Virus record (IMG/VR): IMGVR_UViG_3300019377_000001
Span: 1 to 56,130 of that record
DNA: 56,130 nt
Direction: 5' to 3' (one strand)
DNA from: a virus
The translations under genes were made by a program, and so were the position numbers. Within the stretch, counting starts at the first letter, position 1; each line of letters opens with the position of its first letter. This document shows, in pieces, positions 718 to 36,991 of the stretch. The notes beneath the pieces are model-generated. The model was not told the origin of the DNA. It searched no databases and worked only from the letters and a program-made list of their open reading frames with translations.

Positions 718-855
718 CGGCAGGGCCCGGATTCGAACCGGAGTCGCCGTGCCCGGGGCCACTGCCCACGAGGGGCTTTACCCCGGTGCGCGCGCCGGGG
801 AGGGGACTCGAACCCTCGGGACCACGGTGTCTTAGGCCGCTGGACTACTCCTGCC
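718..855 (-). ncRNA. tRNA-Glu-like gene whose anticodon stem closes a 71-nt insert that contains a second T-arm-like hairpin
   Basis: Read on the minus strand. Acceptor GGCAGGA (855-849) / CCCTGCC (725-719), 6 of 7 bp. D-arm GTCC-AGCGGCCTA-AGAC. Anticodon stem CCGTG (827-823) / CACGG (751-747). Variable loop CGAC. T-arm TCCGG-TTCGAAT-CCGGG (742-726). The insert carries GAGGG-TTCGAGT-CCCCT (817-801). Confidence 0.3.
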
Positions 856-864
856 GCGCCACCA

Positions 865-1053
865 CTACACCACGCGCACGGCCCAGGCGACGAGCGCGAG
901 AACCGCGACGACGGCGACCAGGGCCAGGGCCAGGTCGAGCACGCGGAACGCCACGGCGAAGGCGAACCGCAGGATGCTGACCACCACGAGCAGCGCGCCC
1001 ATGCCGACGAACTGCAGCCAATAGATCAGCTCGTCACGGGCGGACCACGTCAC
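865..1053 (-). CDS. Small membrane protein (2 TM)
   Basis: The GTG at 1053 overlaps the upstream TGA (GTGA). Hydrophobic segments GALLVVVSILRFAFAVAF and LALVAVVAVLALVAW. TAG stop. Confidence 0.6.
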   Translation of the reverse strand: MTWSARDELIYWLQFVGMGALLVVVSILRFAFAVAFRVLDLALALVAVVAVLALVAWAVRVV

Positions 1054-4295: not shown

Positions 4296-5225
4296 CTAGT
4301 CCCGGGCACCCAGGGCTTCGACCTCGGCCACGAACGCGGCCTGGTCGGCTGCGTAGCTCACGGCGTCGCCGCGCTCCTGGACGTCACGCGAGGCGCGGGA
4401 CCACGACGCGCGGTCGTCCATGAGCCGGGTCACGGTCCGCACCCAGGCCGTGTGGTTCTCGCGGTCGAGGAAGATCCCGTGCCCGCCCATCGCCTCCCGG
4501 ATGCCGGGGTCCTTCGACGCGACGAGCGGGATGCCGGACACGGCACCCTCGACACCGACGCGCCCGTACGTCTCGGACCGTGACGGGAAGAGCTGCACCC
4601 TGGTCTGGGCGTAGAAGTCGCGGGGCTCGAGGAAGTCCACGAGCTCGACGTTGCGCAGCCCGTTGAACAGGTGCACGCCGTTGCCGCGGCCGTCCTTCAC
4701 GACGAGGAACCGGTACGCCGGCATCGCGCGGGCCATGGTCGAGACGAGCGAGCCGCCCTTCCACGGCGACGACAGCGACAGGCTGATGCGCGTCCCGGGC
4801 GTCGTGCGGTACCGGTCCGGGTCGATCGGCGGGGGCACCACGAACCGGTGCGCGGCGAGCCGCCGGTGGCGGTCCATCGCGACCCGGGAGGGGAACCACA
4901 CGGCGTCAGCGAACCGCAGGCCCGGGTCGTCGGCCTGGTAGCTGTGCTGGCACATCAGCTTCCGGGTGCCGACGCGGCGCACGGTGTCGAGGGCGTTGCC
5001 GGGCAGCCCGGAGTTGTAGATCGCGAGGTCGTACCGCGTGCGGGGGTCGAGCTCACGGAACCGCCGGACCTTCACGCCGTCGAGGACGGCGTCCTGCGGC
5101 GCGACCGCGGTAACGAACACGTCCACGGTGTGCCCGACGGCGGCGAGGGGCTTGACGAGCTCGACCATCGTTGTTGCCCGCCCGCGGCCGTACCCGAAAC
5201 CCTGGACGACGACGGCGAGCTTCAC
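4296..5225 (-). CDS. Glycosyltransferase, GT-B fold (family 4/1-like)
   Basis: C-terminal FPSRSETYGRVGVEGAVSGIPLVAS...GIREAMGGHG, an E-x7-E type motif. The GTG at 5225 overlaps the upstream TGA. Confidence 0.8.
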   Translation of the reverse strand: MKLAVVVQGFGYGRGRATTMVELVKPLAAVGHTVDVFVTAVAPQDAVLDGVKVRRFRELDPRTRYDLAIYNSGLPGNALDTVRRVGTRKLMCQHSYQADDPGLRFADAVWFPSRVAMDRHRRLAAHRFVVPPPIDPDRYRTTPGTRISLSLSSPWKGGSLVSTMARAMPAYRFLVVKDGRGNGVHLFNGLRNVELVDFLEPRDFYAQTRVQLFPSRSETYGRVGVEGAVSGIPLVASKDPGIREAMGGHGIFLDRENHTAWVRTVTRLMDDRASWSRASRDVQERGDAVSYAADQAAFVAEVEALGARD

Positions 5226-5476
5226 TCGTCTACGACCGGGGCCTGCTCCGCCACGGAGAAGTGCATCCACATGGCCGCGGTCTGCAGCATCGTGAACGCG
5301 TACGCCTTGCCGCGGCCGTGCGGCAGCAGCGCGTCGAGCTGCACCGCGAGCTCCACGAACAGCCGGCGGATGTCGCGGTGCACGGCGGTGGTCGCGTTCG
5401 GCCCCTCGATCGTGGCCTTGTGGAACCCGAACCGGTTCTCGATCTCCTCGCGACCGATGCTGGTGTTGTCTTCCAT
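5222..5476 (-). CDS. Acb2/Tad1-hairpin-like small protein (putative cyclic-oligonucleotide sponge)
   Basis: 84 aa. RFGFHKAT...HRDIRRLFVELAVQLDALLPHGRGKAYAFTMLQTAAMWMHFSVAE fits the F-x-YH...IR...P-x-x-REK-x-x-A-x-T-x-LEEA-x-MWAN pattern of that family. AGGAG SD. Confidence 0.45.
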   Translation of the reverse strand: MEDNTSIGREEIENRFGFHKATIEGPNATTAVHRDIRRLFVELAVQLDALLPHGRGKAYAFTMLQTAAMWMHFSVAEQAPVVDE

Positions 5477-6241: not shown

Positions 6242-8233
6242 TCAGGTCTGTGCGGTCACGGCGGGCTGTAGCTGGGACCACCCGGTACGTACGTTGATCA
6301 GCCGGGCGGGCACGGCGATGCACTGGCAGCCGGCGTGGTCACCCGGGAAGGCGACGAACCCGCCGGCGAACACGCTCACCCCGTCGAACAGCGCATCCTT
6401 GAGCGACAGGTGCACGGGGTGCGGGTCGGGGCCCTGGTAGAGGTGGAGCCACCGGTGGGAGTTGGGGCCGACCGGGGCGGCGAGCCCGTAGTCGCGTCGG
6501 ATGATCGCCATCGTGGCAGCCGCTAGCGCGATCCCGCTAGCGGCCTGCGTAAAATCCGACGCCTCACCCCCGCCGGCGATCGTCGCGACCTCGCGGGCCG
6601 CCTGCCACGCCTCCGAGATCCCGGTGCCGCCTTCCTGCTGGACGGCGACGGTCGCAGCTACGGCGGTCACGAACGCGGCCTGCGCGGCGGTGAGGCCCTC
6701 CTCCTCCGGCTCGGGCGGGACCTCGATGCCCATGGCGCGTAGACGCCCGTGGGCCCGCTGGATCACGCGGGTCACCTTCTCGATAGCGGCCTGCGCGACG
6801 CCCGCGATCGTGGCGTCCATGTTCGGGATGTCGCCCGTGTACAGGCGTGCGAGGTCGGCGTTCGGGACGTCGGCCGGCAGGTCGAAGTTGCGGCCCTGGG
6901 CGATGCTGCGGATCTTCGCGCCGAGCTTCTCCAGGGCCCGCTCCGCGACGTCGAGGATCAGGTCCTCCAGCGACGTGTACGCCTGCTCGTCGATGTCGGC
7001 CAGGCGCGCGCCGTCGATCGTCGGTGTCGCGGCGGCCTGCGGCTGGGACGGCTCCGCGGCGATCTGCCGGGTGTCGTCGGCCTCGACCGGTTCCGGCTCG
7101 GCGTCGCCCTCGGCCGGCACGTCGGCGCCTTCGGTGGGCTGCTGGATGCCGTCGCCCCACGCGTCCTCCGGTGCGCCGAGCTGCTCGGCGGCCCACCACG
7201 TCTGCACGATGCCGGCGACCGCGGCCTGGATGACGTCGGAGGTTGGCGGACGACGGCGCAGCAGCGGCCCGGGGTCCGGAACTACCTCGACGCGGTCCCG
7301 GTCGATCCTGGCCGCCTTGGTGATGCCCTCCGCGTACCCCTGGCCGACCGGGGCGGCGAGCGGTTCGACGTGTCCGAGCCAGTTGTCCTCGAGCGACGCG
7401 TACGCCGACCACTGGTTGGAGTCCTCGAGGCCGAGGAGCACGGACGGCGCCATGTCGAGGCCGATCGCGAGCTGCCGGATCAGGCGATCGATCCGGTCGT
7501 GCAGCTTCTCGTCCAGCGGGCCGGTGAGGTCGAGGGTCTTCCAGTGCTGGATGTACTCGGCGGGCCACCCCACCATGTTCGGCACGGCAACCGACTCGGC
7601 CTTCTCGTCCGCGAGCGGCGCGGTGACGACCTTCGCGAAGTCGTCCTCGAACTTCTTCGGGTTGGGGCCGGCGCCCTCCTTCGGGTACAGCAGCAGCATC
7701 GTCTGCGCGGTCCGGGAGCGGGCCGTAGCTCGCGCCTGTGCCCGGGTCAGGATCAGCTCGGTCGCGATGTCACGCACCGAGGCCACCGCGGAGTCAGCAC
7801 GACCCGGGATCGCCGGGTCCTCGATCATGACCTCCACGAGCACGTCGGCGGCGATCGCCTCGTCGCGCTGCACGGTGCTGATCGGGGAGTTGAGGATCTT
7901 CCACTTGCCGCCCGTGCGGACCAGGAAGTACCGGCCGACCACCTGCAGGTGGATCGCGGCCATGACGGACAGGGAGCGTAGGTCGGCGCCGAACGCCTGG
8001 CGCATCAGCTCGTCGCCCTCGGGCAGCTCTTCGCCGTCGCCCTCCACCCGCCAGTCGAGCCGGCCGACGAGCCGGGCCTGCTGGTTGACCGCGTAGTGCA
8101 CCTCGGGCACGCACCGGTAGATCCGCCAGAGGTCACCTTCGCGCAAGGCGTCCATCACGGGCCGGTCAGGGATGCGGTCGAACGATCGGACGGTCGCAGC
8201 CGTCAGTGGCTCATCCTTCGAGAACAGTCCCAT
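6242..8233 (-). CDS. Portal protein fused to a MuF/SPP1 gp7-like head morphogenesis domain
   Basis: 663 aa, downstream of the terminase. The C-terminus ...FPGDHAGCQCIAVP matches the MuF-type HxxCxC motif. Confidence 0.7.
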   Translation of the reverse strand: MGLFSKDEPLTAATVRSFDRIPDRPVMDALREGDLWRIYRCVPEVHYAVNQQARLVGRLDWRVEGDGEELPEGDELMRQAFGADLRSLSVMAAIHLQVVGRYFLVRTGGKWKILNSPISTVQRDEAIAADVLVEVMIEDPAIPGRADSAVASVRDIATELILTRAQARATARSRTAQTMLLLYPKEGAGPNPKKFEDDFAKVVTAPLADEKAESVAVPNMVGWPAEYIQHWKTLDLTGPLDEKLHDRIDRLIRQLAIGLDMAPSVLLGLEDSNQWSAYASLEDNWLGHVEPLAAPVGQGYAEGITKAARIDRDRVEVVPDPGPLLRRRPPTSDVIQAAVAGIVQTWWAAEQLGAPEDAWGDGIQQPTEGADVPAEGDAEPEPVEADDTRQIAAEPSQPQAAATPTIDGARLADIDEQAYTSLEDLILDVAERALEKLGAKIRSIAQGRNFDLPADVPNADLARLYTGDIPNMDATIAGVAQAAIEKVTRVIQRAHGRLRAMGIEVPPEPEEEGLTAAQAAFVTAVAATVAVQQEGGTGISEAWQAAREVATIAGGGEASDFTQAASGIALAAATMAIIRRDYGLAAPVGPNSHRWLHLYQGPDPHPVHLSLKDALFDGVSVFAGGFVAFPGDHAGCQCIAVPARLINVRTGWSQLQPAVTAQT

Positions 8234-8242
8234 GGGCGAATC

Positions 8243-8644
8243 CTAGGCTTCCGGGGTTCCGTCACCGATGGCCACGATCTGCGCTGTGGTGTGCCGTCCC
8301 CACTGGTTCGCGCACCCACACCCGGACCAGGAGAAGGGCCCCCACGAGCCGCGCTTCGCACCGGACTGGACCCGGTCCCCCGTCGGCAGCGGGTACTTCG
8401 TGACGCTGGTGACCGTCCGGCCGCGGTCGGTGGACCGGGCGACGTACAGGGCGTCCGCGGTGATGATCAGCCGCGACCACCGCCACAGGTCGCCGCCCCG
8501 GCGCCCGCCGCCGTCGTACCGGACGTCTACCGGGTAGAGGTCGGCGGGGCCGTTCACGGGCTTGTTCCCGGTGCGTGCACGGGTCCGTGATCGGTCGGCC
8601 GACGGGGTGAGGGTGGACTTGGTACCTATCGGGCGTGAGCGCAT
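8243..8644 (-). CDS. Hypothetical protein
   Basis: 133-aa ORF between the pyruvyl-transferase-like gene and the portal. TAG stop. Same frame as both neighbours. Confidence 0.55.
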   Translation of the reverse strand: MRSRPIGTKSTLTPSADRSRTRARTGNKPVNGPADLYPVDVRYDGGGRRGGDLWRWSRLIITADALYVARSTDRGRTVTSVTKYPLPTGDRVQSGAKRGSWGPFSWSGCGCANQWGRHTTAQIVAIGDGTPEA

Positions 8645-8653
8645 ATCGGGATG

Positions 8654-9361
8654 CTACGTCGGCAGAGATGTTGCAGCCCGCTTGAGCTGGTCGCACAGGT
8701 GGCGCCACGTGTCGCGGTCCAGCGGGGGCACCGGCCCCGGGGTCAGACACGGCCGGCCGGTGCCGAGGAAGTGGTCCTGGAACTTCAGGTTCGCGGACAC
8801 CAGGCCGTCGGTGTACGACCCGTGCCACGTCACGGGGATCCCGTACGCGTCCGCCGCGATCACCCCGTGCAGCGACGTCGTGATGATGCGTTCGCATGCT
8901 TTCATCTGGCGGACCACGCGACGCCACCCGCCGAGCACGTCGATGAACAACGCATCCGGGTACCTCGAGCGCGCCGGCGTGACGTCCACGAAGTGCGGCA
9001 TGATCCCGACCCGGTGCGTGCGCTCCACCGGCGGGTCGTACACCTCGGGCAGCAGCAGAGCCGGGTCGCCGTACACCTGCGGGACCGTAGCTCCGTCGAT
9101 GCACGACCTGGTGAGCGGGCCCCGCACGGCGAGGAACGTCGTGCCCTTCGTCGCGAACCGCCGATCGTGCTGCACCCCTGTCCCCCACACGACGTCGCCC
9201 GGGCGTAGCGCGTTCATCACCGACCCGACGGCGAGCACCTTGCCCCGCTCGTCGCGGGACACGCGCTCGAGGTCGAACCCGAGGTGCCGGAGGATCACGG
9301 GCGTCAGCGTGTCGCCGAAGTTCTTGGTGGTGGGGTCCCAGTAGGTGCGCATGGGCCCCAT
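8654..9361 (-). CDS. Polysaccharide pyruvyl transferase-like protein
   Basis: N-terminal NFGDTLTP, then ...AVRGPLTR...GDPALLLP...IITTSLHGVIAADAYGIP, the pattern of the CsaB/WcaK family. Confidence 0.6.
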   Translation of the reverse strand: MGPMRTYWDPTTKNFGDTLTPVILRHLGFDLERVSRDERGKVLAVGSVMNALRPGDVVWGTGVQHDRRFATKGTTFLAVRGPLTRSCIDGATVPQVYGDPALLLPEVYDPPVERTHRVGIMPHFVDVTPARSRYPDALFIDVLGGWRRVVRQMKACERIITTSLHGVIAADAYGIPVTWHGSYTDGLVSANLKFQDHFLGTGRPCLTPGPVPPLDRDTWRHLCDQLKRAATSLPT

Positions 9362-9499: not shown

Positions 9500-11047
9500 C
9501 TACCAGTGTCCCGGCAGCGGGCGCGTAGCTCGCTCGGTGTCCACGTTCGTCTCCCCGACGTCGGAGCGCCGCATACGGCGCAGGGCGTGCGCGAGCGTGT
9601 CCGGGATGTCGTCGTGCGGCGCCGTCGGGAACGCCGTGCACTCCACGAGGAAGTCGTCCAGCCACGCCCGCCCGGACGGCAGGTGCACCTGGTGCGCCTC
9701 CACGAGCGGCGACACGGACTGCACCCGGATCAGCTTCGACCCGGTCGGCGGGACGGGCACGATCCCGTCGAGCTCCTTCTGCAACGTCTCGATCGCCGCG
9801 GCGCCGTTCGCGGCCTGCTCCACGACGTGCGCGATCGCCTGCGGGTACCGGCCGATGAACGTCCGCATCTGCGCGAGCTGCACGGTGAACGTGCCACGGA
9901 ACCGGATCTGGTCGAGCAGGTAGTACTGATTCCCGGACCGCTGCCACGCCTGCCCCACGCAGTAGTCGCCCGTCGGTGAGCCGGGCCGTTGCGCGCTCGT
10001 CGTGGACCGGGATCCCGTCGTCGTGCCGGTCCCGAAGGTGAGGTCCCACGCGGTGATGACCTGGTCGGCCGGCGGCAGCTCGGCGTCGGTGTAGAACCGC
10101 CACCAGTCGAGCTTGAACACCGACCCGTCGAGCTCGCCGGGGTGCTGCTGGTACAGCGCGTTGAAGATCGCCGTGCCGACGCTGACCTTGATCGCGTCCC
10201 ACCGGGCGAGGGCTTCCTCGAGCGACTCCTCCTGCTGCACGGACAGCAGCGGTTCCCCGAGGTCGCGGCCGAGCTGGTCGTCGGCCTCCGCGATCGCGGG
10301 GATGACGATCTGCTCCCAGTCGTCCTCGGCCAGCAGCCGGCCGTTGAGGTCGTCGTCGTGCCACCTGGTCGCGATCGACAGGATGATCGACCCGGGCCGC
10401 ATGCGGGGCTTGATGACGGACTGCCACACGGACCACGCGGTGTCGCGGATCTTCTGGCTGTAGGCGTCCTCCATGTTGCGGATCGGGTCATCGATGATCG
10501 CGACGCGTAGGCGCCGGCCGGACATGGAGCCCTTGATGCCGCGGGCGATGATCCCGCCGCGCTCGGGTCCGTCGATCGTCCAGTCGGTGACGCCGCCGCG
10601 GCGCGGGCGCGTAGCTCGGCCGTCGTACTCGCGCTGCACGTCGCCGGAGAACTACGTGGCGAGCGACGCCTCCGCGGACACGAGGCCGATCTGCCAGTCG
10701 GGGCGGTTGAGCAGCAGCCACAGCGGGAACACGACGGACGCCGTCATCGACTTACCCGAGCCCGGGGGCATGCTGATGATCAGCTTCGTGTCCTCGCCGC
10801 GGTCGGCCCGCTCGACGGCGCGCGTGAGCGCGTCCATGAGGACGTCGGTGTGTCGCCGTGCGATGTACTCCGGGCCCACGACGTCGCGCGCTAGCTCGGG
10901 CAGGCTCATGCGCGGTCCGTTGCCGCTACGGCTGACGGCCTCCCCCAGGGGCCGGATCGCGCTGTCGGGTAGGGAGTGGACGAGGGCGGCGACCTCGTCA
11001 TCGGACATGCCGCGCAGCAGGCCGGCGATGTCCCCGAGGCTCGTCAT
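9500..11047 (-). CDS. Terminase large subunit, reading frame interrupted by one in-frame TAG at 10652-10654
   Basis: Walker A PPGSGKS lies in 10652..11047. IIDDP, TRWHDDDL and the nuclease half lie in 9500..10639. Both parts are in the same frame: ...SAEASLAT-TAG-FSGDVQREYDG... Confidence 0.8.
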
Positions 11048-12351
11048 TCCGCCAGGAGGACGGGTGTCTCACGTGTCTCGGCGGCGAGGCGTTCCAGGGA
11101 CGCTGCGACGTACCCCGGCTCCCACTCGCACCCGACGCCGATGCGGCCGGCCCGGTGCGCGGCGACGAGCGTCGACGCGGACCCGGCGAACGGGTCCAGG
11201 ACGATGTCGCCCGGGTCGCTCGAGTTGAGGACGGCGCGGGTCACGAGCTCGACGGGCTTCGACGTCGGGTGGATGTCGCTGTCCTTCGGCCGCGGGATCT
11301 CCCACACGCTGGACTGGGTGCGGTCGGTGACCGGGTGGTGCGGGCCGCCGGTCCACCACCCATACACGATCGGTTCGTGCCGCTGGTGGTAGTCCGCGCG
11401 GCCGAACGTCGCGGTGTCCTTCACCCACACGAGCATCCACCGGTACAGGCCCCTGCTGGCGAGCACGGTCGCCATGGGCGGGAACACGTCACCCTGCCCC
11501 AGGGACACGTACAGGGACGCTCCTGGGCGCACAGCGTGCTCCCCGAGGGTGTCGAGCACGTCACCGAGTAGCTGCGTGGCCTCCTCGATGCTGCCGTCGC
11601 CCTCCAGGACCTCCCGCTCGACGCCGGCGCCGCCGCTGTAGTCGATGCCGTACGGCGGGTCCGCGAAGACCAGGTCGGCCGTACGGCCGCCGAGCATCCG
11701 CTGCCACACGTCGGGGTCGCGGGAGTCGCCGCACGCGAGCAGGTGGTCACCGACGCGCCAGATCTGCCCGTGCTCGACGTCGCCGCCGGCGGGCCGGTCC
11801 TGGAAGTTGCGGTCCGACCACGGGTCGCCGCCGTCGTCGTCCGCGCCCTGCAGGAGGGCGCGCAGCTCGTCCATGTCGTCCTTGCCGTACCCGACGCCGG
11901 CGAGCGCCGCCATGTCGTTCCCGCGGTCGGAGAGCCCGTCGAGCAGCTCCAGGAGGGACTCGTCCACCCACCCGCCGAGCTCGGTGGTGCGGTTGAGGCC
12001 GATCAGCGCCGCGGTGGCCTCCGCGTCGTCGCGGGACGCCCACCCGACCTGCACGGGCACGAGCCAGCGGCCCTGGTCGTCCACCCGCACGCCCTCGGGG
12101 GGGGCCTCGCCGCGGTCCCGCTTCGCGCGGAGGGTCTTGGTGCGGCCGTGCCCGGACACGATGTACCCGGTGCGTTCATCGATCACGGCGCCGTCGATGT
12201 ACCCGAACCGCTCCATGGACGCGTCGATCACGTCGACGGCGTGGTCCTTCGGGTTGGCGGGGTTCGCCGTGAGGTCGTCCAGCAGCCGGTACTCGATGCG
12301 GCGCTCCACGCCGTCGTCGGGCGTGGTGGTGGGGGTCGCCTTCTTCGCCAT
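11044..12351 (-). CDS. ParB-like nuclease domain fused to an N6-adenine-type DNA methyltransferase
   Basis: N-terminal NPANPKDH... ParB-like box. The methylase half has FADPPYG (DPPY) and ...LDPFAGSAST. Confidence 0.75.
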   Translation of the reverse strand: MAKKATPTTTPDDGVERRIEYRLLDDLTANPANPKDHAVDVIDASMERFGYIDGAVIDERTGYIVSGHGRTKTLRAKRDRGEAPPEGVRVDDQGRWLVPVQVGWASRDDAEATAALIGLNRTTELGGWVDESLLELLDGLSDRGNDMAALAGVGYGKDDMDELRALLQGADDDGGDPWSDRNFQDRPAGGDVEHGQIWRVGDHLLACGDSRDPDVWQRMLGGRTADLVFADPPYGIDYSGGAGVEREVLEGDGSIEEATQLLGDVLDTLGEHAVRPGASLYVSLGQGDVFPPMATVLASRGLYRWMLVWVKDTATFGRADYHQRHEPIVYGWWTGGPHHPVTDRTQSSVWEIPRPKDSDIHPTSKPVELVTRAVLNSSDPGDIVLDPFAGSASTLVAAHRAGRIGVGCEWEPGYVAASLERLAAETRETPVLLAE

Positions 12352-12737: not shown

Positions 12738-13040
12738 TCACGCGTGCAGCCGCTGGTCGACGGACGCTGTCACACCGCACACGGTCGAGGCGGCGAGCGC
12801 GATCGCGACGGCCTCGCGGCGTGTGCAGCGGCCGGCGCGCCAGAGCGCGAAGGTCAGGGCGACGGACGCCCAGAACCCGATGCACCACGGGCACCCGACG
12901 AGCTCGGACACCCACTGAGCTACGGGGTGGTTCGAGGCGTTCAGGCGCCCGTGGATCGGTTCGGTGATGGAGTCCACGCCCGCGATCCGGTAGATCCGGA
13001 ACGCTGCGAGGCCGATCACTACTGCCCACACGAGAGGCAT
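12738..13040 (-). CDS. DUF1360-like membrane protein
   Basis: Hydrophobic 100-aa ORF with a GCPWCIGFW motif. Confidence 0.55.
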
Positions 13041-13993
13041 TTTGTCTTCGCCTTTCTGGCTTGTTGGACGTGCGCCGCGGTGGCCGCGATGCGCTGTTGC
13101 TGGGGTGTCGTGCCGGGCACGCGCTGCAGCGACGTCTCGGGGACGACGCGGTTACCGTTCTCGGTCTTGAGCACCCGGTACCGTGCGCGGCGCTTCCGCT
13201 CTGCACGGGGGTTGGGCATGGCCGGCGCGGGGGCCCGCATGCCGGCGCGGTCGAGGATGCCGGGGATCTCGAACCGGCTCGGTCCGCTCAGGCCGGCGCG
13301 CAGCAGGTGCGGCTCGACGGCCTGCCGGAACGTGCCCTCCTGCGACGAGAGCCACGCCCGGGACGGCGGGCCGCCGCGGTTCGCGACGTAGATCTTCGGG
13401 TCGCGCATCTGCTTGCCGCGTAGCCCCTGCAGGTTGCCGTACAGGGTGCGGACGTGCGGCGCCGACGCGCGCATCTTCTCCGCGAGGTCGAGGGACCGGA
13501 GCATCGTGGTCTTGTGCACGGTGAGCGGCGTGTGGATGTCGTAGTTGTACAGCTTCACGCCGGGCAGGAGCTGCTGCAGGAGCTTCTCGGTCTCGCGCAG
13601 GCCGACGGCCCACTTCGACGTCCACGACGCGAACAGCGGTGTCACCTTGCTCGACTCGCCGCGGTGGATCGCGGGTAGCTCGTGCACGGGCTGCAGGCAG
13701 TAGAAGTCGTCATTCCACAGCACCCACGGATCGGACACGTCCGGGGACTCGCACGCCCAGCGGTAGTGCGCCCTGGTGGTGGCGTATTTCATCATGAGGG
13801 TGGGGCGCTGCACGGTGGTGAGGTGCGGGTGTTCGGTGTTCACCCACCGCGGCCAGGACCCGACGATCCACACGTGCCGGTAGTCGAAATTTCGTTCGAT
13901 CGAGCGCAGCGCGAACCGTAGCTCGCGGTTGTCTCCGGCACGGCAGGGGATCACGACATCGGGAGCATCCTGACGGTGCGGCATACCGCGCAT
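13019..13993 (-). CDS. Stealth (CR2)-like sugar-phosphotransferase / glycosyltransferase
   Basis: [24 protein letters not shown]...VWIVG..PRWV...WNDDFY resembles the conserved regions of Stealth proteins. Confidence 0.45.
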
Positions 13994-20006: not shown

Positions 20007-20062
20007 CAGAGCCCCGGACGGGGCGTGTACCCGGCAGGTGGCACGCAACGTCCGGGGCTCTG
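20007..20062 (+). promoter_or_regulatory. Long stem-loop between the membrane-protein gene and the translocase gene (attenuator or terminator candidate)
   Basis: Perfect 14-bp stem CAGAGCCCCGGACG / CGTCCGGGGCTCTG closing a 28-nt loop. Confidence 0.45.
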
Positions 20063-20118
20063 CCCCTTCGGAAAGAGACCACCACCCGCACGCACAGCGA
20101 GAAAGGAAAAGTCCCCAG

Positions 20119-22323
20119 ATGGCTAACGATGAGGTGCCGAACGACGGCACGCAAGATGGGGCCGAGACCACCGAGCGCGACGAGCTGCTGCAGATCGCGG
20201 ACGCGCTCGCAGAGGCCCAGGGCGACCTGTACATGGGGCCCGACGGGTCGATTTCCGCCGTGGACGCGATCGGCACCGAGCACATCGGCACGCTCACCGA
20301 CGCGGGCACCTGGGAGTGGGAGGACGCCTGCCCCGACGACGACACCACGGCCACCGGCAGCGAGCTCGTCGTCACGCAGGCGGTGCCCGACACGGACACC
20401 ACCCCCACGGGCACGCTGGAGCCCCGTGCACGCGTGATCCCGCCGTGGGTGGCCGACCGTCGGGTACTTCTCCCCTGGGTCGGTTCACGGGCCGTAGACG
20501 GCCTCGCGACCGCGACGTTCCACGTCGTGCGATCCCCCTGGTACACCCTCCGCGGCCTGGCCGGCGTCGTGCGCGGCACCGGCCGCTGGATCGCGCAGCA
20601 CGACGACGACGAGCAGCACAAGGCCGACCTCGCCGCGGCCGGGTCCGTCCGCGGCCGTTCCCGCCTGCGCGCGGCCCGCACCCGCGGCCGTGCCGTACGG
20701 CTCGGCGCGGCCATCGTGCCCGCCGGCGCCGTAGCTGCCTGGATCGAGTGGGGGCAGTGGGGCCTGGTCCCCGCCGTCGCGTGCTCGAGCGCGTACCTCG
20801 CCCTCGCGATCGCCGGGTGGCGTGCCGCCCGCGCCCGCACCCCGCGCGAGGCCGCGGCACAGCGTCGCAAGCTCCCCGCGCTGTCGCGTCCGTTCGTGAC
20901 CGAGGCGCTCGCCATCGTCGGGTGCGGTCCGGTGCAGCTCCCGTCCGGGGCGATGGCCGGCCCCGTGATCGTGTCGTCGTCCCCGACGCGTGGTGGTGAC
21001 GTGATGGTGGTGGACCTCCCGCCAGGCGCCGTCGTGTCGCGGCTGCTGAAGAAGCACGAGGAGTTTGCGCAGGCGCTCGGCCGGCCGGCGGAGTGCGTCG
21101 TGATCGAGCCCCTCCCCCGGGTGTCGCCGGGCCGGTTCGAGCTGTTCGTCGCGGCCAAGCGCCTGGACGAGAAGGGCGCGCCGGAGTGGGCCTGGGCCGG
21201 CGGGAAGGCGCGGTCGTTCTTCGACGGCGTGCCCGTCGGGTACGACGCGCGCGGCCGTGAGGTGGTGGTGCCGCTGTTCGAGGCGAACGGCCTCATCGCC
21301 GGCGCGTCCGGCATGGGCAAGTCGTACACGGCGCGGCTGCTGCTGATGGGCGCAGCGCTCGACCCGGGCGTGACGATCCTGATCCACAACCTCAAGGGAG
21401 GCCCGGACTACAAGGCGTTCGGACCCGTAGCTCACACGCTGCGGGCCGGGGCGTCGCCGGCCGACCTCGAGCAGCTCGTCGCGGACCTCGCGTGGATGCA
21501 GTCGGAGATCGGGCGTCGCGCGGCCGTGCTCGAGCGGCTGCCCGCGTCCGAGGTGCCGGAGGCGAAGCTGACGCCCACGGTCGCCGCGAGCGCCGGCATG
21601 GCGCCGGTGGTGCTGCTGGTGGACGAGGCGCAGCGGGCGTTCACGTCGCGGGAGGGGAAGCGGATCGCGGCGATGCTGGAGGACGTGGTTCGCACGGGCC
21701 GCGCCGTCGGGATGCACGTGCACCTGGTGACGCAGGGCACGAAGGAGGGCGCGATCCCGTCGGGCATCCTGGACCAGCTCGTGCACCGTGTGGGGCACGG
21801 CGTGACGACTATCTCGGACGCGAACCTGATCCTCGGGTCGGACGCGCACGGGCGTACGTACCGCGCGGTGGACATCGATACCCCGGGCATCGCGTACGTC
21901 GGTACGGCGGGCGGTCACATGGTGAAGGCGGCCATGGCGAAGGTGGACCTGCCCGACGTCGAGCGGGTCGTAGCTCGTGCGCTCGGGCTGCGGACGACGG
22001 CCGGCACCCTGTCGGGGATGGCGGCGGGCGAGCAGGACGCGGACACGAACGACGGCGGCCCGTCGTCGTTCCTGGCCGACGTGCTCGAGGTGTGGCCGGC
22101 GGTCGGCGGGTCGCCGCGGCGGAACGCGAGCTCGAAGGAGCTCGCGGAGCTGCTCGTGATGGCGGACCCCGCGGAGTACGACGGCCTGCAGGGCGACGAG
22201 GTGTCGCGGCGGATGTCGGACGCCGGCGTGAAGGTGTCCACGCAGCGGCTCCCTGACGGCAACGCACGGGGCGTGAAGCGGTCGGACGTCGTCCAGGCCG
22301 CCCGGGGCCTGGACGGGGCCTAG
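20119..22323 (+). CDS. FtsK/SpoIIIE-family dsDNA translocase, TraB-like
   Basis: Walker A GASGMGKS, Walker B VVLLVDEAQ, two N-terminal hydrophobic helices and a C-terminal winged-helix-like tail. The ATG at 20119 follows GAAAGGAAAA. Confidence 0.8.
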   Translation: MANDEVPNDGTQDGAETTERDELLQIADALAEAQGDLYMGPDGSISAVDAIGTEHIGTLTDAGTWEWEDACPDDDTTATGSELVVTQAVPDTDTTPTGTLEPRARVIPPWVADRRVLLPWVGSRAVDGLATATFHVVRSPWYTLRGLAGVVRGTGRWIAQHDDDEQHKADLAAAGSVRGRSRLRAARTRGRAVRLGAAIVPAGAVAAWIEWGQWGLVPAVACSSAYLALAIAGWRAARARTPREAAAQRRKLPALSRPFVTEALAIVGCGPVQLPSGAMAGPVIVSSSPTRGGDVMVVDLPPGAVVSRLLKKHEEFAQALGRPAECVVIEPLPRVSPGRFELFVAAKRLDEKGAPEWAWAGGKARSFFDGVPVGYDARGREVVVPLFEANGLIAGASGMGKSYTARLLLMGAALDPGVTILIHNLKGGPDYKAFGPVAHTLRAGASPADLEQLVADLAWMQSEIGRRAAVLERLPASEVPEAKLTPTVAASAGMAPVVLLVDEAQRAFTSREGKRIAAMLEDVVRTGRAVGMHVHLVTQGTKEGAIPSGILDQLVHRVGHGVTTISDANLILGSDAHGRTYRAVDIDTPGIAYVGTAGGHMVKAAMAKVDLPDVERVVARALGLRTTAGTLSGMAAGEQDADTNDGGPSSFLADVLEVWPAVGGSPRRNASSKELAELLVMADPAEYDGLQGDEVSRRMSDAGVKVSTQRLPDGNARGVKRSDVVQAARGLDGA

Positions 22324-23378: not shown

Positions 23379-23439
23379 GTCGGGACGGGTTCCCGGACCT
23401 CGTGACAGAACGGTACCACATGCATGTGGGATGAGTGAA
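23379..23439 (-). promoter_or_regulatory. Conserved promoter-operator-leader cassette, copy A
   Basis: Sense strand reads TTCACT-18 nt-TACCGT. Palindrome CCACATGCATGTGG at 23416-23429. Bulged hairpin at 23379-23398. Confidence 0.6.
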
Positions 23440-29587: not shown

Positions 29588-29638
29588 GTCGGGACGGTTT
29601 CCCTGACCTCGTACCCCCAGGGTACCACATGCATGTTG
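29588..29638 (-). promoter_or_regulatory. Conserved promoter-operator-leader cassette, copy G
   Basis: The -10 is TACCCT. Variant palindrome CAACATGCATGTGG (sense strand) at 29625-29638. Bulged hairpin at 29588-29607. Confidence 0.5.
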
Positions 29639-29640
29639 GG

Positions 29641-29835
29641 TCATCCGTACGCCTTGCCGCTCTCGCGCACGACGTCGCCCGCGAACTGCGAGATCTCGCC
29701 CTCGTCGCTCGTGGTGAGCATGCCGGTCTGCAAACCGTCGGCGTTGCACACCACGAGGTGCAGCACGCCGTCGCGGTGCACGACATGCACCGTGCACGGT
29801 GCACCGCTGTTGCCGTTCGTCCAGTTCGTGGCCAT
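29641..29835 (-). CDS. Hypothetical protein
   Basis: 64-aa ORF (MATNWTNGNSGAPCTVHVVHRDG...). Confidence 0.6.
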   Translation of the reverse strand: MATNWTNGNSGAPCTVHVVHRDGVLHLVVCNADGLQTGMLTTSDEGEISQFAGDVVRESGKAYG

Positions 29836-29866
29836 GGTCGGTCCCCTTCGGTCGGTGGTGTGCAGG

Positions 29867-31072
29867 TCACGCCATGGCGGCCAGGACGGCGTCCCGGTCG
29901 TTGTACGCGGTGCGCAGCTTCACGTCGTGCCCGGCGGCGAGGAGCGCTTTGTGCACGGCGTCGCCGGTTGCAGTCCGGTTGCTCTGCAGGAAGGCCCGCA
30001 CGACATCGCGGCGCTCCGCGATGCTCGCGCGCTGTGCAGGTGCAATGTGCACGTGCGGGCGGGGCAGGTCTGCAACGATCGCGGCGGCCTCACGCTGCAC
30101 AGCCTCTGCAACCCGGGCGGCGTACGCCTCGTCCTGCACAACGTCGGGCTGTGCAGGCGGGGCCTGCACCGTTGCAACCTGGGTTGCATGTGCAACGGCC
30201 TGCACGCCGTCGTGCACGTGCACCTCGGGTGCAGGTGCAACCGGCTGCACACTGGTCTGCACGTGCACCTCGGGTGCAGGTGCAACGGGTGCTGCAAGTG
30301 CAGGTGCAGGTGCACCGGTGGTGAGGTCGGCCTGCATCCGCTGTGCAGTCCGTGCAGCGATCGTCGCGACGGACACCCGGACCTCCTCGCCGTAGCGGGC
30401 TGACTCGAGCCAGGCGCCGAGCTGGGCGTCGCGCTCGTCCTGGGGGACGTGCTTCGCGATCGCTCGGGCGGCCCGTCGTGCCCGCTGTGCGGCCAGCGGG
30501 GCGAGCCAGGTGCCGTTCGCCAGGCCCTCGGCCTCGCCCGCCTTGAAGAACGCGTACAGGAGGCCGTGACGGCGCTCCGCGGCACGGTGGGCGCGGTGCC
30601 GCCCGCCGCAGAACAGGTGGATCACCAGCTCCCACAGCCCGGCGGCGAGGAACGGGGCGAACAGGCGCCACCCGGCGGACGCCAGGGCGGCCGACAGGCT
30701 GAGGTCCCCGGACAGGTACTCCATGACCTCGAACAGGGCGCCGAACACGCCGGAGACGCCCGACAGGACCCAGGTCGCGGTGCGGAACAGGGCGGTCGGC
30801 TGCATGCGGTACGCCTCGATGAACGTCGCCGCGGCGACGACGGCGAGCGAGAGCTCGATGACGCCGCCGAACACGTAGCTCGTCACCTCGGAGAGCTGCA
30901 TGACGTTGCGGGCGAACGCGACGCCGCCGATGTACGCGGCGCCGTTCGCGACGACGGCGACGAGCAGCACGGCCGCGGTCAGGGCGATCAGGAGCCGGCG
31001 GATCACGGGCGGCTCGGGGTCGGTGGCGAGATGTGCAGGTGCAACGGGCGTGGTGGTGTGGTCGGTGTGCAC
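29867..31072 (-). CDS. Multi-pass membrane protein, DUF2637-like (as in actinomycete conjugative elements), with a repetitive Ala/Pro/Val/His/Gln C-terminal half
   Basis: 401 aa with a GTG start. About 4 N-terminal TM helices, then ...VAPAPEVHVQTSVQP VAPAPEVHVHDGVQA... encoded by the TGCA array. Confidence 0.75.
   Translation of the reverse strand: MHTDHTTTPVAPAHLATDPEPPVIRRLLIALTAAVLLVAVVANGAAYIGGVAFARNVMQLSEVTSYVFGGVIELSLAVVAAATFIEAYRMQPTALFRTATWVLSGVSGVFGALFEVMEYLSGDLSLSAALASAGWRLFAPFLAAGLWELVIHLFCGGRHRAHRAAERRHGLLYAFFKAGEAEGLANGTWLAPLAAQRARRAARAIAKHVPQDERDAQLGAWLESARYGEEVRVSVATIAARTAQRMQADLTTGAPAPALAAPVAPAPEVHVQTSVQPVAPAPEVHVHDGVQAVAHATQVATVQAPPAQPDVVQDEAYAARVAEAVQREAAAIVADLPRPHVHIAPAQRASIAERRDVVRAFLQSNRTATGDAVHKALLAAGHDVKLRTAYNDRDAVLAAMA
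29941..30370 (+). repeat. TGCA-hexamer array 1 (inside the 3' half of gene 29867..31072)
   Basis: I counted about 32 TGCA in about 420 nt by hand. GTGCAGGTGCA(A/G/C) occurs at 30034, 30229, 30274, 30298 and 30304. A 29-bp perfect direct repeat lies at 30213-30241 and 30258-30286. Confidence 0.85.
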
Positions 31073-31095
31073 GGGCTGTCCTCTCTGTGCAGGCG

Positions 31096-31156
31096 GTCGG
31101 GACTCGTTCCCTGACCTGGTGTGTGCACGCTACCACATGCATGTGGGGGTTGTGCA
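31096..31156 (-). promoter_or_regulatory. Conserved promoter-operator-leader cassette, copy H
   Basis: Sense strand reads TGCACA-18 nt-TAGCGT. Palindrome at 31133-31146. Bulged hairpin at 31096-31115. Confidence 0.55.
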
Positions 31157-31272
31157 GGGGGTGTGCAACGGCGTGTTACGGATGCACGTCTGCGACCTGC
31201 ACTTTTGCACTTGCAACTCGGGGTGCACGTGCAGGTGCACGACGGCGTGCACCCGGCGGGTTGCATGCAAGA

Positions 31273-31303
31273 GGGCCCGCTGCACGTGATGTGCAACGGG
31301 CCC
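31273..31303 (-). terminator. Hairpin after gene 31327..31569
   Basis: GGGCCCG / CGGGCCC stem followed on the sense strand by TCTTGC. Confidence 0.4.
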
Positions 31304-31326
31304 CTGGTTCTGCAGCTATGCGTGCA

Positions 31327-31569
31327 TCACGTCTCGGTGACCACGTAGACGTCAGGCCGGGCAGTGAGCACCTCGGCCTGGTGGCGGGCGAGCCGTTCGT
31401 AGATCGTCGGGTCGAGCTCCCCCAGGAAGGCGCCGCAGCCGCACGACGTGCCTCCGTTGTAGCCGGCCTGGGGCGGGTCGCTGTCCACGGGCAGGAGCTG
31501 CTCGTGATGCACGAGCAGCCGCGCCATGGCGTCGATGTTCAGGACGGGCAGCGGCTTCTCGGTCGTCAT
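31327..31569 (-). CDS. Hypothetical protein
   Basis: 80-aa ORF with an ATGA overlap with the lipoprotein gene. Confidence 0.65.
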   Translation of the reverse strand: MTTEKPLPVLNIDAMARLLVHHEQLLPVDSDPPQAGYNGGTSCGCGAFLGELDPTIYERLARHQAEVLTARPDVYVVTET

Positions 31570-35340: not shown

Positions 35341-35502
35341 TCAGGATGCCTCGTCCTCGCGTGCCGCGACGGCGAGCTGCCGGGCGGCGTCGTCCCAGCG
35401 GAGGTTCTGCGCCCGGGCGTGGTCGGACACGAGCGCGACGATCTCATCCCAGCCCATGGGCGCGAGCTCGCGGCGCAGCGTGGTGAAGGTCCCGGGGTTC
35501 AC
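35341..35502 (-). CDS. Hypothetical small protein (53 aa)
   Basis: The GTG at 35502 overlaps the TGA of the initiator gene. Confidence 0.45.
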   Translation of the reverse strand: MNPGTFTTLRRELAPMGWDEIVALVSDHARAQNLRWDDAARQLAVAAREDEAS

Positions 35503-36734
35503 AGGGCACCGTCCTGGGTAGCGCGCGTGGCGGCGACGTCGAGCACGGTGCCGATCGTCGTCGTGCGGCGGCCGGCACCGGCAGGCAGCGAGCGCCGGAC
35601 GGCGAGGACAGCCTCGCGGCCGGCGCCCGGCGAGCGGTCCACGGAGGACGCGGTGATCGCGATCTCCTTGGCGGCGCCGGTGCCTGACGGCGTGGTGTCG
35701 AGGTTCGGGTTGCACGCGGGGCAGCGGCGGACGTACTCGCGGCCCTCGTGGTCGTTCGCGACGGCGAGCCGAGTGTCCCGGTCGCACCCGCCGCACCACC
35801 GCGGGGTGGTGCGGCCCGGGGGAGGCCCGGGGATGGCCTGGCCGAACGTCTCGGCGGTGCGCCACTGGGCGATCCGCTCGGACAGCCGGGAGCCGGTGTG
35901 GAGCGTGAGGATCAGGCCGTCGGGGTTCGTAGCTCCGGTGGCGTCCACGAGCCAGGTGCGGAACCGTGCGGCCTCGTCGCGGTTGAGCATCATCGCCTCC
36001 AGGACCTGGTCGGGGGTGGCGCGCGTAGCGTCGCCACGAGCACCGGGATCCGCCGTCGTTGCAGCAGCGTCGCGCGCATCACCTGAGGTGATGCTGCTGC
36101 TGGAAGTCTCCACGGGGGATGCAGTAGCCGCGCTACGCGCGGCACTGCGGGGAGGGTCATGGGGAGGGTTACTGGGGAGGGTTGGGTGACTTGTAGTCAC
36201 CTCGTGCGGTGACTCGTAGTCACCCCGGCCCTGACTCGTAGTCAGCCCGTCGTCGTCCGCGGGGTGACTCGTAGTCACCCCGTCGGCGCGCGGACGCTTC
36301 ACGCCCTTGTCGACGCGCTGGTTCTTCTCGGGGGCGGGGGTGTGCTCGGGGCGGTCCTGCGGAGTCAGCGGGGGCCGGCCACGGCCGGCACGCCACACGT
36401 TGACCGACAGCTCGACGTCGTCGCCGTTGTAGCTCTTCTCGGGACGGAAGAACGAGTACGGCACCTGCAGGTCGTACACGACGGGGCGGCGGTCGACGGG
36501 GATCATCCGTGCCGAGGTCTGGTCGCCGCGGCGAAGGAGGCCGCGCTCCTCGAGCGTGGCGATCCGGCGCTGGACGGTGCGCTCGGCAAGGCGGGTGCGC
36601 TGCGAGATGGTCGTGACGCTGAGGAACGAGTTGGTCCCGTCCTGGTCGGCGGCCTCGGCCATCGCGACCAGCACGGCCCACTCGTTGACGTCCGCGACGG
36701 GGGCCGACTTCACGGCCCAGAGGATCTGCTCCAC
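35499..36734 (-). CDS. Winged-helix replication-initiator-like protein (lambda O analogue) carrying its own iterons
   Basis: N-terminal wHTH (FLSVTTISQRTRLAERTVQRRIATLEERGLL). The repeated peptide GVTTSHP/GLTTSQ/EVTTSHP is encoded by the iterons. C-terminal CGGC...CPAC. Confidence 0.6.
   Translation of the reverse strand: MEQILWAVKSAPVADVNEWAVLVAMAEAADQDGTNSFLSVTTISQRTRLAERTVQRRIATLEERGLLRRGDQTSARMIPVDRRPVVYDLQVPYSFFRPEKSYNGDDVELSVNVWRAGRGRPPLTPQDRPEHTPAPEKNQRVDKGVKRPRADGVTTSHPADDDGLTTSQGRGDYESPHEVTTSHPTLPSNPPHDPPRSAARSAATASPVETSSSSITSGDARDAAATTADPGARGDATRATPDQVLEAMMLNRDEAARFRTWLVDATGATNPDGLILTLHTGSRLSERIAQWRTAETFGQAIPGPPPGRTTPRWCGGCDRDTRLAVANDHEGREYVRRCPACNPNLDTTPSGTGAAKEIAITASSVDRSPGAGREAVLAVRRSLPAGAGRRTTTIGTVLDVAATRATQDGAL
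36149..36278. repeat. Origin-like repeat block: 3 x GGGGAGGGT plus 4 x inverted-repeat iterons GTGACT-CGT-AGTCAC
   Basis: 9-mers at 36149, 36161 and 36174. Iterons at 36186-36200, 36209-36223, 36231-36245 (CTGACT..AGTCAG) and 36264-36278. Iteron spacing is 23, 22 and 33 bp. Confidence 0.6.
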
Positions 36735-36930: not shown

Positions 36931-36991
36931 TTGCGCTGGTCCCACATGCGTGTGGTACTGTTCTATCACGAGGTCAGGGAAAAGTCCCGAC
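36931..36991 (+). promoter_or_regulatory. Conserved promoter-operator-leader cassette, copy I (plus strand)
   Basis: TTGCGC-19 nt-TACTGT. Palindrome CCACATGCGTGTGG at 36942-36955. Bulged hairpin at 36973-36991. Confidence 0.6.

Follow-up and report, generated by a model that had tools for sequence, protein, structure and literature searches.

TGCA arrays in and around the gene for an SpdB2-like phage membrane protein: candidate docking sites for the protein's own helix-turn-helix domain

The 56,130-bp sequence of the IMG/VR virus record IMGVR_UViG_3300019377_000001 (hereafter, the window; 70.5% G+C) is the genome, or most of it, of an uncultivated phage of actinobacteria. Within and around a gene for a 401-residue membrane protein, it carries three dense arrays of the tetranucleotide TGCA, which are under selection at the DNA level and are conserved in position among related loci. 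More distant members of the same protein family have arrays of other short words in the corresponding DNA, and there the array motif co-varies with the recognition helix of the protein's own C-terminal helix-turn-helix (HTH) domain. We propose, with a probability of about 0.45, that the arrays are cis-acting multivalent docking sites for this HTH domain, by which the DNA of the element would be tethered at the membrane.

TGCA arrays in the window and in related loci

The gene for the SpdB2-like membrane protein lies at 29867..31072 on the minus strand, as judged from its open reading frame (ORF) and its G+C content at third codon positions. An earlier note on this DNA, made from the sequence alone, had reported about 32 copies of TGCA in the 3' half of this gene, with many spacings of 6 and 10-12 nt. 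There are exactly 32, between 29952 and 30353, and their nearest-neighbor spacings are mostly those; the peptide quoted in that note corresponds to residues 254-303 of the protein (DNA 30164-30313). Given the background of 213 TGCA in the 54.4 kb outside the arrays, 1.68 copies would be expected per 430 nt, compared to the 32 found in 29941-30370 (Poisson P(>=32) = 1.3e-29). The array is also larger than first noted, consisting of three parts with 65 TGCA in total, out of 278 in the whole window, within 29600-31340. The in-gene array (29952..30356; 32 copies, often in the form TGCA-NN-TGCA) occupies the DNA for a disordered linker and its flanking helices. The upstream array (31034..31326; 24 copies) extends from the terminator hairpin of the upstream gene, over the promoter/leader module, to the first codons of the array gene, and the downstream mini-array (29729..29864; 8 copies) overlaps a 64-residue ORF (29641..29835, minus strand) and the gap past the stop codon. 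The 650 nt of membrane-domain DNA between the arrays contain only 2 TGCA, despite having 43 Ala codons, 4 of them GCA.

In an unbiased k-mer comparison, TGCA came out on top of all 4-mers, with 16.8-fold enrichment in the window and 12.7-fold in the relatives, and every enriched 5-mer and 6-mer contained TGCA. Generic G+C-rich words aside, the locally clustered 8-mers of the window are GTGCAGGT-type units only. The 12-mer GTGCAGGTGCA[ACG] is present in a single orientation at all five positions given for it earlier (30034, 30229, 30274, 30298, and 30304) and in two additional copies at 31033 and 31229, so that seven of seven are on the plus strand and none is on the minus strand.

The choice of codons points to selection on the DNA word rather than on the peptide, as had been argued from the use of rare codons. 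GCA accounts for 20 of the 39 Ala codons of the linker (51%), compared to 32 of 801 (4%) in 16 other genes of the window. Codons ending in T, which make up 3.6% of all codons in the same 16 reference genes, are used in the linker where TGCA results. The word is read in more than one frame: in the in-gene array of the window, 19 copies are in the NNT-GCA frame and 13 in the NTG-CAN frame, and in nine loci (the window and eight relatives) the respective counts are 111 and 100, with 12 more copies in the TGC-ANN frame. Nearly all of the latter come from a single locus, L012, whose linker uses another frame yet retains the array. In the protein of this locus (P0053; positions 7587-8759), the frame-changed linker is a Cys/Thr/Ser-rich peptide, which could reflect a genuine frameshift or else a mistake in the assembly.

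Conservation at the DNA level was checked in the eight metagenomic relatives, whose proteins are 37-73% identical to that of the window. All of them keep the bipartite or tripartite layout, with TGCA density maxima at the same three places, whereas the linker peptide is hypervariable and cannot be aligned. The upstream array is conserved in position in the window and in L001, L003, L007, L008, L010, L011, and L012, and the downstream cluster, at +1200..+1340, is also found in L001, L008, and L011. The unalignable linkers are always rich in the pairs V-H, V-Q, L-Q, M-Q, and x-A, i.e., in translations of TGCA. The observation that would have spoken against selection on the DNA, a peptide kept in relatives that had lost TGCA, was looked for, and the reverse was seen: TGCA is kept and the peptide is lost. 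The use of two frames and of rare codons, the copies in intergenic DNA, and the persistence of TGCA in relatives with an unalignable linker all argue for selection on the word itself. Bases flanking TGCA are nearly uninformative, with only the palindromic core being conserved, and the most frequent 8-mers vary among the relatives (ACCTGCAC, CGTGCACG, TGCAACTG, and TGCACGCA, among others). In the noncoding upstream arrays, a spacing of 6 nt is favored, accounting for 25 of 151 nearest-neighbor spacings compared to 1 or 2 each for 5 and 7 nt; since the NN spacers differ between adjacent units, this preference does not stem from recent slippage.

Two further explanations were considered. A translational pause caused by rare codons is rejected because half of the TGCA copies use common codons (GTG-CAC/CAG) and because intergenic copies exist; the enrichment is limited to those rare codons that create TGCA. 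For the upstream array, situated as it is between the terminator hairpin and the promoter, a motif acting at the RNA level is improbable.

Recent tandem duplications do occur. The 29-bp direct repeat described earlier (30213-30241 and 30258-30286) is indeed perfect and belongs to a 45-bp unit repeated 2.5 times (30177-30288), and TGCAGG is present as a tandem of 3.7 copies. Such duplications, along with the varying length of the linker among relatives, would fit an array that is a nonfunctional by-product, a low-complexity linker grown by slippage of TGCA-containing hexamers. We consider this most improbable, given that the same core is retained where protein identity has fallen to 37%, and is found in intergenic DNA, in two to three frames, and between diverged NN spacers, and that it is missing from the membrane-domain half of the gene with its 43 Ala codons. 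Moreover, the sister arrays described below run in both orientations, which is impossible by slippage, and array presence correlates with the type of the HTH.

A scan of IMG/VR for four consecutive TGCA-NN units returned at least 120 matches, all unrelated and mostly in low-GC contigs with simple hexamer repeats; their TGCA density did not exceed 19 per 400 nt, and this system could be recognized in none of them. Neither the array locus nor the 401-residue protein had a match among 50,697 phage records in blastn and tblastn searches.

The array-bearing protein family and the reader of the arrays

The 401-residue protein is predicted to consist of three parts. Its membrane domain (residues 1-251; DNA 30320-31072) combines four predicted transmembrane helices with long cytoplasmic helices; in the AlphaFold model built with the family alignment, the former span residues 22-56, 62-88, 94-120, and 126-185 and are followed by two further cytoplasmic helices. 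The linker (residues 252-348; DNA 30029-30319) is hypervariable and disordered, with one short helix inside, and the predicted local distance difference test (pLDDT) score drops below 50 at residues 253-313, matching the densest TGCA. The HTH-like three-helix domain at the C terminus (residues 349-401; DNA 29870-30028) reaches a pLDDT of 91.6 when modeled alone, and residues R387, T388, and A389 at the start of its third helix are invariant in the family alignment. The best fold matches of this domain with low root mean square deviation are HTH domains (FapR, AhrC/ArgR, FurB, and StbA), none of them significant (Foldseek E > 1). Foldseek searches of the Protein Data Bank (PDB) with the full model and with the C-terminal domain produced nothing below E = 0.3, and a sequence profile search of PDB with the protein produced nothing significant. 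Several distant relatives have the Pfam domain HTH_23 or HTH_18 at the same C-terminal position. Altogether, 57 homologues were found on metagenome contigs of soil type, whose lengths of 52-56 kb match that of an entire phage genome, and 73 relatives were retrieved when 1.84 billion representatives were scanned in full with HMMER.

The gene had initially been described as DUF2637-like, which holds at the level of remote profile similarity but not as a Pfam match. No Pfam family was detected at E <= 0.01 for the whole protein or at E <= 10 for its N-terminal 250 residues, and the DUF2637 model (PF10935) was also missing from ten distant relatives. SpdB2 of plasmid pSVH1 itself misses this model, and many of its homologues carry it. 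When the profile of 36 family sequences was compared with that of 20 SpdB2 homologues, hhalign aligned 119 membrane-domain columns with a probability of 58% (E 9.7e-5); a narrower family alignment compared with the single SpdB2 sequence gave a probability of 0.5%. On these profile comparisons, kinship of the 401-residue protein with SpdB2 is plausible.

A scan of 185,579 species genomes identified 80 loci encoding related proteins, mostly in Promicromonospora, Myceligenerans, Isoptericola, Cellulosimicrobium, and Nocardioides. Arrays were scored in 77 of these 80 loci, the criterion for an array being that the top 6-mer of the linker DNA had a density of 25 per kb or higher and exceeded the background at least 10-fold. 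All 19 loci whose recognition helix reads VTDRTARR have an array, and its motif is always CGGACA. Among the other 58 loci, just three have an array, each with a motif of its own: CCGGTC in L283, GTGACA in L286, and GTCCAC in L328. The association between HTH helix and array presence has a Fisher p of 3e-15, a value not corrected for phylogeny. In the relatives that belong to actinomycete integrative and conjugative elements (AICEs), the array is confined to the linker-coding DNA, and there is no promoter array. The HTH of the window protein, GHDVKLRTAYNDRD, is of the same type as that of the CGGACA class, GHHVTDRTARRLL, with differences in the residues that follow the invariant R-T-A. Furthermore, L286 and protein P0089 have both the motif and an RT(V/I)xRD helix in common. 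Thus, across the family, the array motif co-varies with the protein's own HTH recognition helix.

The sister arrays found in relatives have the motifs CGGACA, CCGGTC, GTGACA, GTCCAC, and GAGCGCTCA. In four members of the superfamily, at L263 to L266, they occur in both orientations and in several frames, at about 20 copies per kb as opposed to 0-4 per kb outside. GTGACA is present in 38 copies in the region and none outside it in L264; GAGCGC in 37 copies, with 2 outside, in L265, next to a ParA-like gene; and CGGACA in 31 copies, with 2 outside, in L266, an AICE that also encodes a GntR protein, a TraB-like protein, Prim-Pol, a methylase, and an Xis-type HTH_17 protein. A 389-residue member of the superfamily (hhalign probability, 91.8%) comes from L263, an unrelated metagenomic contig, which has 32 copies of GAGCGC; between positions 930 and 2700, GTGAGCGCTCAC-type units are found upstream of the gene, in its linker-coding DNA, and in the gene that follows. 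The product of the latter is a small coiled-coil protein whose HTH third helix (SLRTAYND) is nearly identical to that of the window protein. In L265 (535-3343), the GAGCGCTCA arrays are located directly downstream of a gene for a ParA-like ATPase (AAA_31/CbiA) and a 154-residue ORF, a neighborhood that hints at a partition role for some members of the family.

Chromosomal paralogues of the membrane domain are encoded at L268, L273, L277, L290, L296, and other loci of Promicromonospora, Myceligenerans, Isoptericola, and Cellulosimicrobium. These proteins have HTH_23-like C termini (e.g., GRTYREIAEEVGVSxSTVxKRMREF) and very long low-complexity linkers, with neither a motif array nor a TraB-like gene within the retrieved flanks. 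They may represent a cellular, nonmobile branch of the family.

The presence of non-palindromic motifs bears on a second candidate role named in the earlier note, that of a cluster of methylation sites, in which a methyltransferase of the phage or of its host would modify TGCA to create an epigenetic mark, similar to the GATC clusters at oriC or P1 pac. TGCA itself is still compatible with such a role, being a 4-bp palindrome with uninformative flanks, as is typical of methylase sites, and the phage has two N6_N4 methyltransferase genes (Pfam), one of them only 760 bp downstream. The homologous sister arrays, however, use non-palindromic 6-mers (CGGACA, GTGACA, and GTCCAC) in both orientations, and in L007, L008, L010, and L012 the neighboring methylase is gone from its syntenic position while the arrays are kept. 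Likewise, neither methylase was found in a related 55.7-kb viral contig, which is weak evidence because the search was pattern limited. A methylase would have no need of the nonrandom spacing, with 6 nt favored and 5 and 7 nt avoided, and TGCA outside the arrays is neither avoided nor enriched (213 observed versus 170 expected). We therefore view methylation as a very unlikely function of the arrays.

The phage encodes a TraB/FtsK-like DNA translocase (20038..22323, plus strand, start codon uncertain; Pfam FtsK_SpoIIIE) that matches TraB of Streptomyces plasmids, including pSVH1 (30.6% identity, E 1e-21 in tblastn). In every array-bearing AICE locus, a TraB/FtsK-like gene, whose product is 33-36% identical to the phage translocase, ends just before the Spd-like gene, and the array is located 0.7-1.2 kb past its stop codon, inside that next gene; at the loci without arrays, no TraB-like gene was detected within the 2.5 kb retrieved on each side. 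With a TraB-like gene beside every array-bearing genomic locus, the translocase is a serious alternative reader, and the leading idea of the earlier note was indeed that the array is a loading site resembling plasmid clt loci and their TraB recognition sequences (TRS), bound by the C-terminal winged helix of the translocase. In plasmids, TraB binds the clt locus at a cluster of short direct repeats (PMC4447253), and pSVH1 has five copies of GACCCGGA just after traB; the clt of pWTY27, with four copies of TGACACC, lies partly within traA (PMC3583192). The homology of the phage translocase to plasmid TraB, the clustering of GTGCAGGT-type units in the window, and the shared orientation of the seven 12-mer copies would all suit this assignment.

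Several observations go against it. No asymmetric 8-bp unit of the TRS type is conserved, only the palindromic 4-bp core; the top 8-mers are phage specific, and the flanks of the core are nearly uninformative. The pSVH1 TRS GACCCGGA has 14 scattered copies in the window and no cluster. The phage array is 7.5 kb away from the translocase gene and has 30-65 copies, compared to approximately 5-9 in known clt loci. The most telling contrast is that between L283 and L308, in which the C-terminal 100 residues of TraB are 89% identical and the membrane domains 83% identical, whereas the helices (VSDGYARKLL versus VTDRTARRLL) and the motifs (CCGGTC versus CGGACA) differ. Conversely, within the CGGACA class the identity of the TraB C termini ranges from 39 to 97%, and yet the motif is constant and the helix is always VTDRTARR. 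The motif thus follows the protein's own HTH and not the C terminus of TraB, which makes a loading site for the translocase unlikely. Accordingly, the proposed link to the translocase survives at the level of gene families, through the TraB match and the adjacency in AICEs, and is not supported as far as the reading of the array is concerned; the translocase and the membrane protein probably work together. The more general suggestion that the array is a multisite protein-binding locus appears, from these patterns, to be its best reading.

Genomic setting of the arrays

The window contains a capsid gene of the HK97 type, whose product is about 30% identical to the capsid proteins of Gordonia, Microbacterium, and Arthrobacter phages, a terminase gene (9500-10639), and an amidase gene. 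No integrase gene was found among the ORFs scanned. The array locus sits inside a block of early/replication genes that includes a gene for an HTH_36 initiator-like protein (35499..36734, minus strand), a DUF3799 nuclease, and an Rv2179c-like exonuclease (all from Pfam). This location, together with the placement of the sites in linker-coding DNA, which recalls the lambda origin in gene O, would be in keeping with a second replication origin or a cis-acting replication enhancer made of iterons, similar to P4 ori/crr or to lambda ori. However, a candidate classical origin is found elsewhere, inside the HTH_36 gene: four 22-bp palindromic iterons (GGTGACTnnnAGTCACC; GGGTGACTCGTAGTCACCCCGT, in the sense of the gene GGTGACTACGAGTCACC) at 36184-36283, with three adjacent copies of an 11-12-bp repeat, ACCCTCCCC, all within 36149-36283. 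These iterons are placed just after the part encoding the N-terminal winged helix, as in lambda gene O, and the set looks like a replication origin of the lambda O type, which renders a second origin at the arrays unlikely. Furthermore, G+C content is 62-69% across the arrays, leaving no AT-rich unwinding element; the GC skew and GC profile give no origin-like signal there; the array gene codes for a protein of the membrane rather than for an initiator; and the AICE relatives have Prim-Pol replication genes of their own. An origin role for the arrays, also put forward in the earlier note, is in our estimate highly improbable.

The upstream array covers the promoter/leader module of the array gene (31089..31146, minus strand), which consists of the palindrome CCACATGCATGTGG, an extended -10 element (TGG-TAGCGT), and the hairpin GGTCAGGGAACGAGTCCCGACC. 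At least 10 copies of this module are present in the window, at 23429, 23856, 25775, 26578, 27119, 27533, 29638, and 31146 on the minus strand and at 36942 and 40272 on the plus strand. Its elements come in the order palindrome CCACATGC(A/G)TGTGG with an extended -10 (TGG-TAnnnT), about 14 nt, hairpin (GGTCAGGGAAC.AGTCCCGACC, with compensatory GGCC..GGCC variants), Shine-Dalgarno sequence, and start codon, with a GC-rich terminator hairpin ahead of most copies. The repeated module probably represents a promoter specific to the phage, for early or middle genes, that is equipped with an operator and a structured 5' leader.

The overlap with this module raises the prospect that the arrays are operators serving purely for transcriptional regulation or autoregulation, bound either by the protein's own HTH or by some other regulator of the phage or its host, with no tethering or DNA transport involved. 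The in-gene and downstream arrays would then belong to the next promoter module, at 29638, upstream of which they lie, and membrane-anchored transcription factors are an established kind of regulator, with ToxR and CadC as examples. Yet 30 or more sites deep in a gene are too many for an operator, no array accompanies the nine other copies of the promoter module, and the AICE arrays are in linker-coding DNA only and not at the promoter. A purely regulatory role thus seems distinctly unlikely.

Other features of the window are mentioned here for completeness. The other N6_N4 methylase gene (11044-12351; Pfam) encodes a 435-residue protein with an extra N-terminal domain. Intermixed with it and the terminase gene are homologues of cell-surface-modification genes, all on the minus strand and unusual for a phage: a GT4 glycosyltransferase (4296-5270), a polysaccharide pyruvyl transferase (8654-9361), and a Stealth CR2 protein (13019-13993). 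The early region includes a full-length homologue of ribosomal protein L19 (32250-32597, minus strand; Pfam E 2e-49), which also matches a PHROG of unknown function. The sole tRNA of the window is a tRNA-Leu with the anticodon AAG (792-868, minus strand), and an Rfam scan of the whole window detected no family. Outside 29600-31340, several 6-bp palindromes are depleted: AGGCCT and CAGCTG are absent (19 copies expected of each), and GTCGAC (14 versus 40 expected), TGGCCA (3 versus 10.7), and AGCGCT (5 versus 15.6) are underrepresented, which suggests avoidance of restriction in an actinomycete host.

Proposed function and comparison with known systems

In the docking model that we favor, the four membrane spans would anchor the protein in the cytoplasmic membrane, and these spans, combined with the Arg-rich N terminus, suggest that both ends are cytoplasmic. 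The HTH would hang on a disordered tether of about 60-100 residues, and the protein probably oligomerizes, as SpdB2 does (PMC4447253). Each HTH would read its short core (TGCA) weakly, and dozens of sites in about 1.7 kb would provide for tight, element-specific binding by avidity, holding the phage DNA at the membrane beside the TraB-type DNA pump. Candidate purposes include translocation or spreading of DNA through the septa between hyphal compartments, segregation in hyphae, and organization of replication at the membrane. Sites over the gene's own promoter would permit autoregulation, and those in the linker-coding DNA would come at no cost in genome length. With its sites inside its own gene, the protein would first of all act on the very molecule that encodes it.

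A number of points count against this model. Its support consists of sequence statistics and co-variation, from which we infer binding, tethering, and biological role; homology to SpdB2 is only 58% probable according to hhalign, and the pSVH1 spdB2 gene has no such array. The HTH assignment relies on the predicted structure and on the position of the domain, with no support from Pfam, PDB sequences, or Foldseek. A 4-bp palindrome is unusually short for an HTH site, and the dominant 6-bp spacing sets neighboring sites on nearly opposite faces of the helix. The Fisher p value is inflated by shared ancestry. The protein encoded in L263 and P0068 are accompanied by the same GTGAGCGCTCAC arrays while their HTHs look different, and no TGCA arrays are present on the short contigs that encode P0117 and P0127, two small soluble proteins whose HTH is very similar to that of the window protein. 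In the phage, the TraB-like gene is 7.5 kb away from the array and on the opposite strand. Finally, the decisive contrast between L283 and L308 is a single, indirect pair, so that a clt-type function of the arrays keeps some weight.

If the docking model is correct, it provides a sequence-specific cis site for the SpdB2-type spread proteins, whose DNA binding has so far been described as nonspecific, along with natural specificity variants (TGCA, CGGACA, CCGGTC, GTGACA, GTCCAC, and GAGCGCTCA) for direct testing. From the pairs of motif and HTH, a compact set of natural data, one could learn how a small family of HTH domains recognizes DNA. The model would also make testable the older suggestion that some actinophages spread their DNA through the mycelium by means of plasmid-like TraB/Spd machinery. 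In any event, the arrays are a clear case of a DNA-level function dictating a coding sequence in several frames and both orientations, which matters for gene annotation, for codon usage analysis, and for the reading of "low-complexity linkers." A broader and more doubtful idea is that we are dealing with a general design, in which SpdB2-like proteins write dozens of their own HTH sites into their own linker DNA as a "self-addressed handle" tying the element to the TraB-type pump. Its proposed scope would be a clade of soil phages and many AICEs (in Promicromonospora, Myceligenerans, Isoptericola, and Nocardioides), and, if it were true, a phage genome could pass between hyphal compartments, or be partitioned among them, in a conjugation-like manner that does not require the virion.

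Among the systems described so far, the closest in protein architecture is SpdB2, an oligomeric four-helix membrane protein that binds double-stranded DNA and interacts with TraB, and whose homologues in actinophages have been proposed to help spread phage DNA (PMC4447253). SpdB2 of pSVH1, like the window protein, has about 400 residues, four membrane helices, and a cytoplasmic region with an HTH-like end, and the array gene, too, is tied to a TraB/FtsK-like pump, in the same genome in the phage and by adjacency in the AICE relatives. In contrast to SpdB2 homologues with PF10935, the window protein has no match to this family, and its gene holds 30-65 copies of a short motif, compared to none in pSVH1 spdB2; the DNA binding of SpdB2 has been reported as nonspecific.

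A precedent for sites written into a spread gene is the SpdA2/sps system of pIJ101 and other Streptomyces plasmids; the palindromes bound by SpdA2 are part of the gene that encodes it, and the protein influences the segregational stability of the plasmid (PMC4170104). Like the arrays, these sites lie within an Spd-type gene, where they are kept at the level of the DNA and shape the peptide (the SRDD/E motif in SpdA2). The sps site, however, is a 12-bp palindrome, CGTCACGTGACG, with 1-3 copies in or next to spdA, as opposed to dozens of 4- to 6-bp cores. Moreover, SpdA is small and soluble, has its DNA-binding domain at the N terminus, and has no established sequence relationship to the protein described here. 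The clt/TRS loci share with the TGCA arrays the use of short-repeat clusters, which in their case act in cis for TraB-type transfer of double-stranded DNA (PMC4447253, PMC3583192). They differ in being asymmetric 7- to 8-bp direct repeats (GACCCGGA in pSVH1 and TGACACC in pWTY27) in about 4-9 copies at or next to the end of traB, whereas the arrays consist of 30-65 copies of a 4-bp palindrome, or of 6-mers in both orientations in the relatives, and their motif tracks the HTH of the Spd-like protein.

Plasmid centromeres can likewise be built of short boxes, as in the case of the ACTC tetramer boxes of TP228 parH/ParG, the omega heptads of pSM19035, R1 parC, and R388 stbS/StbA. Like the arrays, these comprise many contiguous short sites that flank or overlap a promoter. 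They are bound cooperatively by a small DNA-binding domain and serve both segregation and autoregulation, as the arrays may do through the HTH-like domain; in addition, the relative L265 has a gene for a ParA-like ATPase (AAA_31/CbiA) two genes upstream. Unlike in those systems, the candidate binding domain is here fused to a membrane anchor and the sites are inside the coding sequence, and a Pfam scan of 40 ORFs of the window, covering part of the small ones, detected no nucleoside triphosphatase of the ParA or ParM type. The lambda origin, with four 19-bp iterons located in gene O, in the DNA for the linker of the initiator that binds them, offers the arrangement proposed here, of a two-domain protein with its cognate sites in the DNA for its flexible linker; the difference is that the phage protein is a membrane protein and that a separate set of iterons exists in the HTH_36 gene.

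A search of open-access literature on TGCA arrays or iterons in phages and on DUF2637 retrieved no description of such an element. None of the systems compared here combines a membrane-anchored reader, 30-65 copies of a 4- to 6-bp core, placement in several frames of the reader's own linker DNA, and occurrence in a phage. Taken together, these comparisons place the TGCA arrays closest to the cis-acting site arrays of conjugation- and partition-type systems, and there is a real chance that sites written into the gene of their own membrane-anchored reader represent a general principle.

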